A stretch of DNA of 64,000 nucleotides. It comes from a virus. Lineage: Duplodnaviria > Caudoviricetes. The stretch lies in IMG/VR virus record IMGVR_UViG_3300042508_000526. One strand, given 5' to 3'. This document shows, one piece after another, positions 28,014-32,734 of the stretch. The translations under genes and the position numbers were made by a program. The notes under the pieces were generated by a model that searched no databases, was not told where the DNA came from, and saw nothing but the letters and a program-made list of their open reading frames with translations. How positions within the stretch are numbered: the first letter of the stretch is position 1; every line of letters starts with the position of its first letter.

Positions 28014-28264
28014 ACGGGCAACTCTTCTTTCGCTGGGAGTAAGCAGTACCGATCCTTGTACGGGAACACGCCGAGTGACCTCCCGTTATCCCATCGCACG
28101 CTTATCTGATGCCACTCCGGTGGACCCTCGAAGTTAACGTGCACAATCGTGCCTTCAAGCCCGGCCGGCATATCTTTCTCCACGGGCATCCATGTGGAGC
28201 CGGGATTGACCATCTGAGACAGCAACCGAATCCGCAAACCAACCGCAGGCGCAAGCGACGCCAT
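28010..28264 (-). CDS. DUF4314-like protein
   Basis: GTIVHV...QISVRWDNGRSLGV. Confidence 0.7.
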   Translation of the reverse strand: MASLAPAVGLRIRLLSQMVNPGSTWMPVEKDMPAGLEGTIVHVNFEGPPEWHQISVRWDNGRSLGVFPYKDRYCLLPAKEELPV

Positions 28265-28569
28265 TAGAAACCCTCCGGAAAGACACGAACACTTCCTGCG
28301 TTCTGCCGAAACGCAGCGATCATGGGCTTGTAGACCGACTCGCACAGCCCGTGCTGCGCGCAGAGGTCTTCGGCCCAACCCATCCCCATCCAGACGACAT
28401 CCTCGCTCGCCGTCAGGCTAGCGAGGCCGACGAGCATGCACATCAGCGTTTCAACCACATCATTGCTCACGTAGGATGCGTGCTCGATCCCGGTTGAAGA
28501 GCGGACTGCAGCAACCCGCGCCGAAAGCTGGTTCAATTTCCCAGCCTTTTTGGGATGTAATGTGATCAT
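28264..28569 (-). CDS. hypothetical protein
   Basis: ORF track; start uncertain; overlaps the upstream Cys-rich ORF. Confidence 0.45.
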   Translation of the reverse strand: MITLHPKKAGKLNQLSARVAAVRSSTGIEHASYVSNDVVETLMCMLVGLASLTASEDVVWMGMGWAEDLCAQHGLCESVYKPMIAAFRQNAGSVRVFPEGF

Positions 28570-28747
28570 AGATCCCGCAGAAGTATCGGGGCTGTTTTCC
28601 ATCGTCTTGTTGAACCTCCACAAGATGTTTACACGCTGCATCAGCCGCGCTGACGCTCTCACCAAAGCTGCAAGGCCGCCGCTTGCAGCAAAAACCAGAA
28701 TGCACACACGGCACAGCGCCGGGGTACAGCGGCAAAGGGGCAACCAT
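28460..28747 (-). CDS. Cys-rich putative metal/Fe-S binding protein (YkgJ-like)
   Basis: CVHSGFCC...C...CKHL...CGIY; AAGGAG RBS. Confidence 0.55.
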   Translation of the reverse strand: MVAPLPLYPGAVPCVHSGFCCKRRPCSFGESVSAADAACKHLVEVQQDDGKQPRYFCGIYDHITSQKGWEIEPAFGAGCCSPLFNRDRARILREQ

Positions 28748-28799
28748 CAGATGCTCCTTCGTGGTTAAGAACGCTAATGGCACAGCGCCAATAGCAAAG

Positions 28800-29140
28800 A
28801 AAAACCGGGCGGGTCGATTTACGCGTTCCCAACCCTATAACCCAAGACGAGCTGCAGCTCTTCTTGGAACCCCTCCACGCCGGAGTCGCCGCCACGATAT
28901 TCACCGCAACGGTTCCGGAAGGTAAGGAGTACCCGGTTTACAACGGCGCGCTCAGGTATGCTAGCTGGCGCTGGATACAGGACTTTGGGATCGCGCATAC
29001 CATTCCACCCTAGTTTCCTGCACCCCCGTTGTTGGCTTAGACCCGGCTGTTAATTCAGCGCTCTTACCCGATGAGGGATAAGATACGACCGCCATGTCGT
29101 AGCGTTAATTCGCGCCGCTACCCGATGAAGGATAGCTCCG
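28800..29140 (-). ncRNA. structured ncRNA candidate 3 downstream of tmRNA (pseudoknotted core 28800-29050)
   Basis: nested helices, a 7-bp pseudoknot, G-U pairs favouring the minus strand, U-rich 3' end. Confidence 0.62.
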
Positions 29141-29146
29141 GGCGAG

Positions 29147-29494
29147 TGGAGCCGGCGGGAATCGAACCCGCGTCCAGAGATGTCTCCAATAAAGACGTCT
29201 ACATGCGTAGGTTGTTGCTACTTGCGCTACAACCAAAGCCAGCCGATTATCGGCGTCAGGTGGGTTACCACCATCTTTGCGTGTCTTTCCACGCCGCCTG
29301 CTGTCTTCCCAGCGGCCAACCTGATTGGGCGATGAGGCTCAGGTCGCCTCACCCGATCACTGCGTCAAGCAGCGAGAGCGGGAGCGCTGTTGAGGGCGCC
29401 AACTAACAATGTGGGCGATTTTTAACGTGGCCCTTCGTCCAACCACGGCATGCAGTCTAGATCTTCCTCATCCTGTCGAAACCAGTACGGCCCC
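29147..29494 (-). ncRNA. ssrA: tmRNA, tag peptide (A)GALNSAPALAA
   Basis: 5' GGGGCCGTACTGGTTTCGAC, 3' GGGTTCGATTCCCGCCGGCTCCA; tag ORF 29365-29400 ending LAA-stop. Confidence 0.95.
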
Positions 29495-29500
29495 TAAATT

Positions 29501-29689
29501 TCACGCAACTGCGCTGGGCAGTGGCGTTACTTCGTAGGCGCGGCCATAAAAATAGCCGTGCCAAAAGTCGTCAACGTGTTTGTCTTGCAACAGCGCATTC
29601 TGATCCGCAACTGTTGCAGCCTCTTCCTTGTTTAGTTTCAACACGCGGCAGTTGTTGCCGAGAGTTTCCGCATACACAAGCGGTGTCAT
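29501..29689 (-). CDS. hypothetical protein
   Basis: 62 aa, AAGGGA RBS. Confidence 0.5.
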   Translation of the reverse strand: MTPLVYAETLGNNCRVLKLNKEEAATVADQNALLQDKHVDDFWHGYFYGRAYEVTPLPSAVA

Positions 29690-29775
29690 TTCGTTTCCCT
29701 TTTGTGAAAAATGAAACCAGCACGGCCACAATTGTATTAGAAACTCACCGCAAAACGTTGAGTTTCCAATATGAA

Positions 29776-29849
29776 TAACCCGGGTGGGAGTCGAACCCAC
29801 AACAAGTAGATCCTAAGTCTACCGCCTCTGCCAATTGGGCTACCGAGTC
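29776..29849 (-). tRNA. tRNA-Leu(TAG), short variable loop
   Basis: cloverleaf, anticodon loop CTTAGGA, GGTTCGACTCC T-arm; no encoded CCA. Confidence 0.9.
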
Positions 29850-29922
29850 ATTAAATGTGGCTGGTTGAGAAGGCAACCATTTAACCAAGCCCAACACCTT
29901 GCGAATGCGTTGGCACCACACA

Positions 29923-29994
29923 TGACCCCACGGGGATTCGAACCCCGATTATCGCCGTGAAAGGGCGGTGTCCTAACCATTAGACGATGGGGCC
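29923..29994 (-). tRNA. tRNA-Glu(TTC)
   Basis: canonical cloverleaf, loop CTTTCAC. Confidence 0.95.
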
Positions 29995-29998
29995 GCGG

Positions 29999-30160
29999 TC
30001 AGGCAAGTCCAACATACTCTGCTTTGCGCCAGAAGTACATTGGCATGCCGATTTGCATATGCCCGTCGCGGACGCGTGTATCCAGCGGGGCATTGTTCGA
30101 ATTTGCCCACGCAATGATACTCGTCACCGCATCGTCGCTCTGCACTGTTCTGTAAAGCAT
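29999..30160 (-). CDS. 53-aa hypothetical protein (MLYRTVQSDD...)
   Basis: translated manually; GGAG RBS. Confidence 0.5.
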   Translation of the reverse strand: MLYRTVQSDDAVTSIIAWANSNNAPLDTRVRDGHMQIGMPMYFWRKAEYVGLA

Positions 30161-30196
30161 TGGTACACTCCATTGTTATCAGAACACAAATCACAG

Positions 30197-30267
30197 TAGC
30201 CCGCCGAGGAGTCGAACCCCGCGTTGCGAGTTAATAAGACTCGCTTGCCAACCGGTTTCCGCGGGCC
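30197..30267 (-). tRNA. atypical tRNA or tRNA-like element, anticodon TAT (Ile)
   Basis: acceptor stem and T-arm intact; anticodon loop CTTATTA; non-canonical D region, G8 and U37. Confidence 0.6.
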
Positions 30268-30353
30268 GGAACGAGCGGGTGCCGGAAGCTTGGGCTTCTC
30301 CCGGCACCCGCCCTACCAGACGCGACGCGCTTTAGCGTTTCGCGGCCAGTGTG

Positions 30354-30689
30354 CTATCGGTAGCGCTTGCAGGCGAACCAGCGGCCATTTGAGCCGCGTG
30401 CTACGCCTTGGTCAACTACCCGCATACCAGACCGAGAAAAGCAACAGTTACCCAACGCGGCTTCGGGAGTGCTCCCGCTGCCGACGCCTTCGTAACCGCT
30501 GTTGCCGCCGAAGTGGCGGCACTGCCCGCATCGAGCCTGCATCTCCGCAACGCCCTGCGCAGTCGCGTTGGTAGGCTGATAGTATCGCATCGGTTGATGC
30601 GACGTGTAGCTCTCGATGATGACAGGTCCGTCAGCGCAGGCAATCCCAGCAAGCACTGACAGCACAGAAAAAACACAGACGCGAATCAT
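30354..30689 (-). CDS. secreted Cys-rich protein
   Basis: signal peptide; GYEGVG...ALGNCC...DQGVARGSNGRWFACKRY. Confidence 0.75.
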   Translation of the reverse strand: MIRVCVFSVLSVLAGIACADGPVIIESYTSHQPMRYYQPTNATAQGVAEMQARCGQCRHFGGNSGYEGVGSGSTPEAALGNCCFSRSGMRVVDQGVARGSNGRWFACKRYR

Positions 30690-30760
30690 AGATCCTCCGT
30701 GAAGAGCTGCAGGTGCGCGCAGCCCAAAAAGATCAGCCCCGCACCGGGCTTTCTGACACT

Positions 30761-31213
30761 TCAGCAGCCAGCCGGCTGCAGCACGCGGCCTTTGATGACG
30801 CGGCTGCCCGGTTTCCGGCCGGTGTTACGCACCTTATGCGCAACGCCCATCCGAATCAACCGGTTGGCCCGGGCGGCGGTGAAGATGTAGTTGTTACCGA
30901 TCATCCTGTTGGGGAGGAACGGGTTACGGTCCAGTCCCTTGTTCCCATGGCGACGCGACTCATGCGCCTCCAAGAACTTTTCGGCCGCCGCTGCGCGAAG
31001 CCCGTAAAAACGGTTCATGGTCAAGGGGCGCAAACCCAACAACTCACGACCGAAGTTAATACGAGCCCGAATCTCACGCATTGAGATCGAGCAGCTGCAG
31101 AGCCACGGATCGTTCTTTGCCACGATGGTCTCCTTATCATCCCTGATGTACAGCCGCACAGCGACTGTGTCCACTGAACAGCAAGTTACACCGTGTAACC
31201 TGCTTGCAGCCAA
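30761..31213 (-). CDS. basic hypothetical protein
   Basis: ORF track; start uncertain. Confidence 0.5.
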   Translation of the reverse strand: MAASRLHGVTCCSVDTVAVRLYIRDDKETIVAKNDPWLCSCSISMREIRARINFGRELLGLRPLTMNRFYGLRAAAAEKFLEAHESRRHGNKGLDRNPFLPNRMIGNNYIFTAARANRLIRMGVAHKVRNTGRKPGSRVIKGRVLQPAGC

Positions 31214-31226
31214 ACGCTAGCTGCAA

Positions 31227-31299
31227 TGGCCGCGGGGGGACTCGAACCCCCGCCCTCCTGCGTGTAAAGCAGGCGCTCTACCAACTGAGCTACGCGGCT
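31227..31299 (-). tRNA. tRNA-Val(TAC)
   Basis: canonical arms, loop TTTACAC; A1-C72 mismatch. Confidence 0.92.
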
Positions 31300-31307
31300 A
31301 CCGTACG

Positions 31308-31676
31308 CTATTCAGCGTCGGGTTTGATGGCGTCGAGCATGTCAACGATCTGCCGCATGTACCCACGCGGCGGAAGCGGTACCCAGCTTTTTGCGCGTTC
31401 TGGGTCGTACGGTCGCCAATATGGCGCATCGTCAGCGTCCACCACACCCCAATCGTTGTTAACAAACTTGTTGTGGTTGATGGCGTCGACAAGCCGTTGC
31501 GGCATATCTTCGTACACGAGTTGCCCGTCTGGGCCCTCGTAGCAGCACTGCGTTTGCACCGTGCTGTCGAATTTACCGATGTGGATTCCGATATTCGGAC
31601 CGAAGTAATAAACCATTTGGTTTTCTTCTGGCAGCCGATCGATACACCGAATCCATCCGTCGTTGTCCGCACTCAT
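31308..31676 (-). CDS. DUF551-like phage protein
   Basis: GWIRCIDRLPEENQMV...WRP. Confidence 0.65.
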   Translation of the reverse strand: MSADNDGWIRCIDRLPEENQMVYYFGPNIGIHIGKFDSTVQTQCCYEGPDGQLVYEDMPQRLVDAINHNKFVNNDWGVVDADDAPYWRPYDPERAKSWVPLPPRGYMRQIVDMLDAIKPDAE

Positions 31677-31954
31677 TCGTCTTCTTCCTCGTCGGGCGGG
31701 AACATGGCGTTCCAGCAGGTGTTGCAGATGCCGGACAGAAGAAACTCACGCTCGCTAGCGGGCAAGTACGGGAAACAATCCTGCACGTAATTGCCCGCTT
31801 CGAACCGCGCGTAGTCCTGCGGCTTGACGGTCACAGAGACCACCGTACCGCAGGAATAGCATGGACCCTCAATGAGGATCTGCTGCTCGCCACCATCGGT
31901 TACCTCTTCCGTGGTGCAGTTCCCGCGGAAGACGTACTTTGTTATCAAAGCCAT
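31673..31954 (-). CDS. Zn-ribbon phage protein
   Basis: CYSC...QDCFPYLPASEREFLLSGICNTCW. Confidence 0.7.
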   Translation of the reverse strand: MALITKYVFRGNCTTEEVTDGGEQQILIEGPCYSCGTVVSVTVKPQDYARFEAGNYVQDCFPYLPASEREFLLSGICNTCWNAMFPPDEEEDE

Positions 31955-31984
31955 TGAGCACCTCCCGTGAAAAAAAAAACACAA

Positions 31985-32057
31985 TAGGAGCGGTGGGACT
32001 CGAACCCACACTTGAAGAATTTTAAGTCCTTTGCCTCTGCCTTTGGGCTACACTCCC
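31985..32057 (-). tRNA. tRNA-Leu(TAA), short variable loop
   Basis: cloverleaf, loop CTTAAAA. Confidence 0.9.
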
Positions 32058-32099
32058 ACATCTGTAAGAAAAACGATGCGAATTTCTTACAGAATTAAC

Positions 32100-32375
32100 T
32101 CAGGCGTCGTCGTTGTAGTCTGCCAGCCGACGACCAGCTTTTTCGGCGGAACCGCTGTGCGCTTTCAGAAGCCCGCGCGCATCGACAGCGCGGTCGATGT
32201 AGCGGAAACACGTTTCCAACCGCAAAAACCGCGGGTAGGACTTGCGCTCCGCAAACCGGTCCAGCGCGCCACGCAAATCCTCGATGTACCGGTCAATTGC
32301 GCCGTCGTAGAATTCGGCCAACTTTTCCAGTTCATCCTTTTCGACCTCAGCGGACGACGGGCTGTTGCTCGACAT
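32100..32375 (-). CDS. hypothetical protein
   Basis: ORF track, helical. Confidence 0.55.
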   Translation of the reverse strand: MSSNSPSSAEVEKDELEKLAEFYDGAIDRYIEDLRGALDRFAERKSYPRFLRLETCFRYIDRAVDARGLLKAHSGSAEKAGRRLADYNDDA

Positions 32376-32616
32376 ACGCTAACCTTTCTTGTTGGGCGTT
32401 AGGGGTCCAGATGTAACGCTGCTCACCCACTTGGCACCACCAGCGTTGGCCGTCATGCCAGTAGATAGGCGTTGTTGCCGCGGACGGCGGCTGCAACGCT
32501 GTAGGTGTCGGGTGCGCATGTCGATACTCCGTGTAGCTCTGCCACAGCAGAGCAACCAACATGAACACCGCAGTGAGCAACCCGATGATATTCCCTTTGA
32601 TCTCAATCCCCTTCAT
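32347..32616 (-). CDS. membrane-anchored hypothetical protein
   Basis: N-terminal helix; AGGAGG RBS. Confidence 0.6.
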   Translation of the reverse strand: MKGIEIKGNIIGLLTAVFMLVALLWQSYTEYRHAHPTPTALQPPSAATTPIYWHDGQRWWCQVGEQRYIWTPNAQQERLAYVEQQPVVR

Positions 32617-32660
32617 TTCAAACCTCCTTGTTTAGAAATGAAAATCATTCAATCGACCAG

Positions 32661-32734
32661 TGCCCCCTCTAGGATTCGAACCTAGGACCAACGGATTAAA
32701 AGTCCGATGCTCTAACCAGCTGAGCTAAGGGGGC
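32661..32734 (-). tRNA. tRNA-Lys(TTT)
   Basis: canonical cloverleaf, loop CTTTTAA. Confidence 0.95.

Follow-up and report, generated by a model that had tools for sequence, protein, structure and literature searches.

The tRNA cluster of phage T4 encodes two stable RNAs, species 1 and species 2 (rnaC and rnaD), which are about 120-140 nucleotides (nt) long and of unknown function, are co-transcribed with the tRNAs and are released by tRNA-processing enzymes. To our knowledge, T4 has no transfer-messenger RNA (tmRNA), and we know of no earlier description of RNAs that accompany a phage tmRNA. In two-piece (permuted) tmRNAs, a second functional RNA piece comes after the acceptor piece. Phage tRNAs can also be adjoined by theta ribozymes, which are hepatitis delta virus (HDV)-like (PMC10879173). 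Among the large, ornate RNAs of phages and prophages, ROOL and GOLLD comprise a conserved and a variable part, with GOLLD exceeding 800 nt (PMC12286853). The sets of tmRNA and tRNAs carried by large phages are generally thought to aid the takeover of host translation (PMC7162821). This work describes an RNA encoded behind the tmRNA of a lake phage (IMG/VR virus record IMGVR_UViG_3300042508_000526), in a stretch of 64,000 nt (the window) of its 203,206-bp genome, a record with direct terminal repeats that belongs to a tailed phage according to its tail fiber, virion and helicase families. We show that this RNA, here called module M, is a conserved, covarying and pseudoknotted non-coding RNA structure on the minus strand. 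It is one module of a family that is always located behind tmRNA-like RNAs, a relation that the original prediction from the window had missed.

M runs on the minus strand from the lead of helix A at 29036 to a U tract ending at 28800, about 235 nt in total. A pseudoknotted RNA of about 250 nt had been predicted at 28800-29050, downstream of the tmRNA; the pseudoknotted RNA is real, but its extent is the shorter one given here and a further module, D1, lies between it and the tmRNA. Helix A is a perfect 7-bp helix (29032-29026 with 28946-28940, ACAACGG/CCGUUGU) that encloses a variable domain. Within this domain, helix B (29024-29017 with 28981-28974) has 8 bp including two G-U pairs, whose plus-strand counterparts are A-C mismatches, and encloses a GGG/CCC hairpin (29010-29008 with 28989-28987). 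The loop of this hairpin contains GGUAUGC (29001-28995), which pairs perfectly over 7 bp with GCAUACC (28961-28955) in the loop of hairpin C (28948-28971, GCGCCAG...CUGAGCGC), the hairpin that presents the 3' partner. The pairing crosses helix B, as had been predicted, and can be refined to a kissing-loop pseudoknot between two neighboring hairpins.

The 3' domain is surrounded by closing helix P2', with 8 bp between AACCGGGU (28938-28931) and GCCCGGUU (28810-28803). The CCGGG/CCCGG closure noted in the original prediction ahead of the U tract (28805-28809 with 28932-28936) is part of this helix, and the predicted hairpin CCAAGA..GAGCUGCAGCUC..UCUUGG was likewise found, as variable arm P5b (28868-28841), next to variable arm P5a (28930-28869). 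The family signature (28811-28842) consists of junction GGUUAUAG followed by hairpin P6 (28835-28829 with 28817-28811), which has the loop GAACGCGUAAA. Directly after the closing helix, a run of five U residues (28804-28800), kept in all close relatives, is the probable end of the transcript. When checked as an intrinsic terminator, the site comprises the 8-bp closing helix (5 G-C) and then the U5 run; the consensus scan made no call, as the enclosed 120-nt multi-branch domain exceeds the loop limit of the scan.

The minus strand of M (28800-29036) folds at -102.1 kcal/mol (z = -2.87), and 3 of 200 shuffled sequences were as stable. For the combined D1 and M stretch (28795-29143), the minus strand reached -144.2 kcal/mol (z = -2.48), compared to -116.5 kcal/mol (z = -0.74) for the plus strand. 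The assignment to the minus strand is also favored by the many G-U pairs that would be A-C mismatches on the opposite strand.

No match to 28600-29500 was found by BLAST among deposited phage genomes, and relatives were sought in public viral and metagenome contig collections by means of short conserved motifs. The hairpin motif that is repeated at 29065-29080 and 29119-29134 matched 14 viral contigs, most of them 150-240 kb in size, and a relaxed version of the motif identified 39 loci in viral and metagenome contigs combined. Three of these loci (L019, L041 and L028) are approximately 75% identical to the window from 28796 through the 5' end of the tmRNA, the U tract marking the limit of conservation; the other loci from the hairpin-motif scans have the element in common only in parts. 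Scanning with the signature of M itself additionally revealed loci with M that are devoid of D1. In total, 5 close and 51 distinct distant versions of M were collected, with lengths of 93-265 nt and with D1 ahead of about half of the distant ones. The shortest length belongs to the shorter copy of a tandem pair of M in L216.

Covariation was assessed in a close set composed of the window, L019, L041 and L028, for which helices were derived with RNAalifold and the crossing helix was added. RNAalifold recovered helix A, a shortened helix B, the GGG/CCC hairpin, hairpin C, the closing helix, the two variable arms and P6. In this set, 98.6% of the cells are paired (slid controls: 35-45%), with eight compensatory pair columns: one in helix A, two in the crossing helix, three in hairpin C and one in each variable arm. 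In L028, helix A is kept through a G-C to U-A replacement, the crossing helix reads CACGCA/UGCGUG in register with two U-A to C-G double changes, and hairpin C reads GUGACGG...CCG-UCAC with three compensatory pairs. Helix B fared less well than predicted: its 8 bp with two minus-strand G-U pairs are present in the window, but only the four outer pairs are kept in the relatives, with a hairpin insertion in L019, L041, L028 and L197. The 8 bp of closing helix P2' are invariant across the four close sequences, and in arm P5a of L197 several G-U pairs are replaced by Watson-Crick pairs.

The consensus of the distant set is a junction built from closing helix AAYCAGU/GCUGRUU, helix A (AACCG/CGGUU) with a variable domain inside it, an arm that is optional, GGUUAUAG and P6. 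Here, 98.1% of the cells are paired and 7 of the 25 pairs are compensatory (slid controls: 23-46%), including a C-G to U-A change in the closing-helix homologue of L045. The stem of P6 covaries as GAAUC/GAUUC, GGAUC/GAUCC, GAACC/GGUUC, GGGAU/GUCCU and GGGUCG/CGACCC, with three of five pairs compensatory, and the loop GGNNCGUAAAW is kept. Variable arms P5a and P5b are replaced or missing in distant relatives, e.g. L020 and L216, and the kissing-loop domain is absent from them. The closing helix, helix A, the junction, which is invariant in M, and a hairpin with loop GGNNCGUAAA are common to the family, and homology between the close and distant forms is clear for the 3' 45 nt of M. The conservation of the predicted pairings, examined in homologues of both sets, is thus borne out by compensatory changes.

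M is not protein-coding, since each of the four close sequences has at least two stop codons in every frame and the indels between relatives are 1, 2, 11 and 36 nt long; a conserved open reading frame (ORF) was looked for across M and no frame is open. The small ORFs at 28819-28998, 28961-29095, 28659-28904 (-) and 28683-28925 (+) are not conserved. M belongs to an RNA family that is not in Rfam. With Rfam 15, whose families include RNase P, the signal recognition particle (SRP) RNA, T-box, HDV-like, pistol, hatchet, twister-sister, ROOL, GOLLD and 6S, nothing was found on M or D1, and no match beyond the tmRNA reached the gathering score in the whole window. At E ≤ 10, region 28500-29200 gave only the 3' end of the tmRNA and matches at chance level, in line with the predicted lack of an RNase P or SRP consensus. 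The distant relative in L004 (6700-8000) gave one tRNA only at E ≤ 1. A permuted-tmRNA model scored 24 bits at 29092-29179, a span from the 3' end of the tmRNA itself into the first part of D1 that falls short of M.

Four resemblances to known RNAs were tried and rejected. By eye, UAGGGUGG at 29005-29012 (-) resembles the T-box core; L028 has UGGGGCAA at this point and the Rfam T-box model does not match. GGAAAC and AAAGUCC motifs look similar to those of RNase P, of which no model matches either. An HDV-like topology is ruled out by the order of the helices, as the consensus comprises nested junctions and one loop-loop contact. M was also considered as the coding piece of a split tmRNA; the window tmRNA has its own tag ending in ALAA, and the codons before the UAA of the CGUAAA loop vary.

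Module D1 (29143-29040, minus strand) is located between the tmRNA and M and is optional in relatives. It is composed of five hairpins closed by one stem, P1 (29142-29138 with 29046-29042): H1 (29135-29118), H2 (29113-29102), H3 (29101-29084), H4 (29082-29063) and H5 (29058-29047). Two near-identical hairpin pairs flank the variable H3, with H1 resembling H4 (loop YUCAUC) and H2 resembling H5 (loop AAUUAA/AAAUAA). Across 29 sequences, 96.9% of the cells are paired and 9 of the 30 pairs are compensatory (slid controls: 34-48%). A U-G pair in H1 is invariant, and in two members H1 or H4 is lengthened by insertions that replace the loop. The D1 covariance model (R1) scores 109.6 bits and finds a single copy in this genome. 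Among species-representative bacterial and archaeal genomes, 29 pattern matches were obtained, none of which is D1 according to R1; that search covered D1 and not M.

D1 and M are separable modules, as shown by two arrangements. In L197, a 194-kb contig near this phage, a complete tmRNA (127.7 bits) is followed directly by M, which starts 1-2 nt past the tmRNA discriminator, and D1 is cleanly absent. Conversely, in L075 D1 is followed directly by an ORF, without M.

We propose a link of M to tmRNA on the grounds that all copies examined have a tmRNA or a tmRNA-like unit of about 135 nt on their upstream side, whatever intervenes. A true tmRNA or a T arm/acceptor-stem unit lies within about 250 nt upstream of all 43 copies for which 450 nt or more of upstream sequence is available (28 identified by pattern and 15 read by eye from the sequence). 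The spacing is 1 nt, 112 nt or another value: M is either directly adjacent to this unit, or 112 nt away with D1 in between, or further away with other modules in between. Among the 28 copies with measured spacing, modules intervene in 21, and M follows the tmRNA-like unit directly in 7 distant loci.

Upstream of M, the distant phages have an array of structured RNA modules that begins behind a TTGACA-N17-TAGAAT promoter. Such an array always has one or two of the ~135-nt units, which are composed of an acceptor stem, a tmRNA-like 5' part GGACUAGAUUGGGAUA and a 3' part UAGUAGUACC...T arm...CCACGACCA. They have no recognizable tag frame and no G3:U70 pair and are missed by both Rfam (E ≤ 1) and ARAGORN; judged by their sequence, they may be miniature tmRNA-like RNAs. 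Tandem units with a GUAGUACC motif precede D1 or M in L004 (7340-7640, minus strand), L017, L020, L035 and others. In L004, L005, L010, L017, L024 and others, whole transcription units consist of varied structured RNA modules separated by a conserved (C)AAUACAA linker, which may be a common processing site. This linker is not a feature of the window, where AAUACAA occurs 13 times (6.2 expected) and only once within the RNA island; one copy lies at 29732-29738. Extra RNA-like modules are located between D1 and M in L088 and L072 and between the tmRNA-like unit and the next module in L149, L017 and L063; inserts such as CACGUUGGAAACC...GCCGCACGAGACGUGUGA and UUUAUGGGUGACGGUUUACCGUAUGACGAGGCAAAGCAC...CCCAUAAA recur in several loci.

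Downstream of M, the sequence varies: some copies are followed by a U run with a new promoter, some by the ribosome-binding site and start codon of genes that are unrelated, and others by an RNA module with a tRNA. In at least 10 distant loci, a U4-U6 run after M leads up to a TTGACA-type promoter, and many distant copies have no U run. In about 12 loci, a module ACAAACAGGGGUCGGAUAGAAACC...GGUUAAUGCGUGAUACCGGACAUUA follows M (L004:6969-7060, minus strand) and leads directly into a tRNA. This tRNA was assigned a four-base anticodon (gaga) by ARAGORN in L004 (6894-6968, minus strand), and its counterpart in L017 was read as tRNA-Phe (aaa). Two further tRNA model matches, L041:4241-4341 (-) and L197:8884-8984 (-), span 101 nt and may represent tRNAs with an insertion or intron.

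In the window, the tmRNA is located at 29144-29494 on the minus strand (Rfam RF00023, 130 bits). The model is matched end to end (positions 1-374) without M or D1, as is the case in L197. The acceptor stem contains G3:U70, the translated tag ends in ...GALNSAPALAA followed by a stop, and the discriminator is A29147, after which CCA is not encoded. The tmRNA is complete and one-piece and, read from its sequence, looks functional. Five tRNAs lie on the same strand at 29775-32734, so that the tmRNA and the tRNAs are found within 4 kb, and no gene for SmpB was detected in the phage. An ORF of about 60 codons (29501-29690, minus strand) begins behind tRNA-Leu and stops 6 nt short of the 5' end of the tmRNA. 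The tRNAs, this small ORF, the tmRNA and both RNA modules may be on one transcript.

On the other side, 537 nt separate the tmRNA from the next plausible gene, at 28264-28605, which has GGAGG as its ribosome-binding site. Its protein has no relatives in viral contigs, and even the close relatives lack the gene. The approximately 190 nt between the U tract and this gene (28606-28795, minus strand) include an AAGGAG ribosome-binding site and an ATG at 28747; the frame from this ATG overlaps the start of the gene, and neither is kept in the close relatives. A Pfam search of ten neighboring proteins gave matches to DUF4314 and DUF551 only. Proteins common to close and distant loci are limited to two small ones, one with DUF551 and one without a family match. 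Contigs from two freshwater metatranscriptomes (one sample) were compared with 28300-29800. They matched the conserved T arm of the tmRNA, which corresponds to tmRNAs of other organisms, and one exact contig of 151 nt was found at 29167-29316. M and D1 lie outside the span that these contigs reach, and expression and RNA ends of the two modules are not addressed by them.

Taken together, we favor, with a probability of roughly 60%, the reading that M is a genuine structured non-coding RNA that is co-transcribed with the tmRNA, cut from the shared precursor, stable, and acts with or beside the tmRNA. We infer co-transcription of tmRNA, D1 and M, release by tRNA-type 3' processing and action in trans as a stable RNA. 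In this scheme, the tmRNA, D1 and M would form one transcript ending at the closing helix and U5 run. Ordinary tRNA-type 3'-trimming enzymes would cut after discriminator A29147 and thereby free the downstream RNA. M would persist as a compact, stable RNA acting in trans with or beside the tmRNA-like RNA, and its invariant junction and loop nucleotides might bind a protein, the ribosome or further RNA copies. Several points weigh against this reading. The carriers identified are all large phages from a single broad, related group, so that the order of tmRNA-like unit and M, and part of its constancy, may be inherited gene order. One common three-dimensional core of the close and distant forms is not proven, as the 5' strand of the closing helix comes after helix A in the close form and before it in the distant form, and the variable domain with the kissing loop rests on just three or four independent sequences. 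No partner protein is suggested for M, given that Pfam was uninformative for the neighboring genes and that SmpB is not encoded by the phage. Finally, co-transcription, processing and stability are deduced, the RNA runs reaching only part of the tmRNA.

We consider it less likely that M is a ribozyme acting in cis, a plain terminator or a leader of the downstream gene than a stable RNA acting in trans. Processing of the precursor by M as a new catalytic RNA, self-cleaving or of another type, e.g. to release the 3' end of the tmRNA, would agree with the start of M 1-2 nt after the discriminator in L197 and its direct adjacency to the tmRNA-like unit in the 7 distant loci, with the need to cut a 3' end whose CCA is not encoded, and with a compact junction that has invariant nucleotides and a pseudoknot. 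Theta ribozymes beside phage tRNAs provide a precedent (PMC10879173), and pistol ribozymes are present in equivalent tRNA arrays of related phages (L004:3618-3680, L005:5432-5494, L020:3889-3951 and L030:1320-1382; 53-56 bits, above the gathering score). However, D1 or another module is located between the tmRNA-like unit and M in 21 of the 28 measured copies, and because of these intervening modules M cannot define the tmRNA-like 3' end in cis there. Moreover, M is matched by no Rfam 15 ribozyme model, even at E ≤ 10, its helices are nested save for one kissing loop, unlike the double pseudoknot of HDV-like ribozymes, and the shared AAUACAA linker that separates many kinds of modules in the distant phages points to a general nuclease. 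A catalytic role is therefore quite improbable in our view. It is doubtful, too, that M mainly serves in cis as the 3' end of the operon, an elaborate intrinsic terminator and exonuclease block that stabilizes the tmRNA precursor. The U5 run directly after the closing helix in all close relatives, the U4-U6 runs ahead of promoters in at least 10 distant loci and the end of sequence conservation at the U tract all suit such a role, but many copies have no U run and are followed by an RNA module and tRNA or by a ribosome-binding site and start codon, L216 has M in tandem, and the invariant junction and loop, the kissing loop and a covarying structure of 93-265 nt exceed what termination needs.

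By analogy with ROOL and GOLLD, M, D1 or both might self-assemble into RNA-only particles, with the kissing loop and A-rich loops making intermolecular contacts. Their location in a phage, in a tRNA/tmRNA island, and the presence of conserved and variable parts recall these RNAs (PMC12286853), as do the conserved A-rich loops (AAUUAA, CGUAAA) and the covarying kissing loop. We rate such particles as rather improbable nonetheless, as M is far smaller than either RNA, neither model matches it and the distant relatives are without the kissing-loop domain. A riboswitch-like leader that controls a downstream gene is suggested by the ribosome-binding site and ATG found 15-25 nt after M in several distant loci. 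The downstream genes are mutually unrelated, though; promoters or tRNAs come after other copies, and in the window and close relatives M has a probable terminator at its end, with no conservation of the next gene (28264-28605). Given this variety of downstream content among the loci, we consider a leader for a single gene extremely improbable. A more far-reaching reading would make M a dedicated partner of phage tmRNA-like RNAs: where the tmRNA is reduced to the ~135-nt unit, M, with or without D1, would supply a missing function in trans, giving a two-RNA system of ribosome rescue or capture. Alternatively, M would be a new class of catalytic RNA that matures the arrays. We regard this reading, in either form, as unlikely.

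The M family is part of arrays that extend from promoter to terminator and consist almost wholly of structured RNA modules. A functional link with tmRNA would suggest that ribosome rescue or host takeover involves RNAs not recognized so far; a link without function would still leave two well-supported new families of RNA structure, M and D1. In addition, the putative tmRNA-like mini-RNAs form a set that is missed by current annotation tools.

Compared to the systems described so far, M shares with two-piece tmRNA the presence of an RNA in the 3' trailer of a tmRNA gene, but the window tmRNA is one-piece with its own ALAA-ended tag and M has no conserved reading frame. The mode of release proposed for M and D1 resembles that of T4 species 1 and 2, to which they are likened by description only. 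Like theta ribozymes, M is a structured phage RNA that can come right after a tRNA-type acceptor end and could in principle free this end; it differs in having no nested double pseudoknot, no match to an HDV-type model in Rfam and often a separation from the tmRNA-like unit. With ROOL and GOLLD it has in common that it is phage-borne and located beside tRNA genes, with relatives within tRNA arrays, that it is multi-domain with a conserved and a variable part, that it has kissing loops and A-rich loops, and that no protein partner or function is known. It differs in its size of 93-265 nt (ROOL is about 580 nt long), in the lack of a covariance-model match and in being tied specifically to tmRNA-like units. 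M is thus new as a family within a known kind, the structured phage RNAs of tRNA islands, and its constant position behind tmRNA-like RNAs sets it apart.
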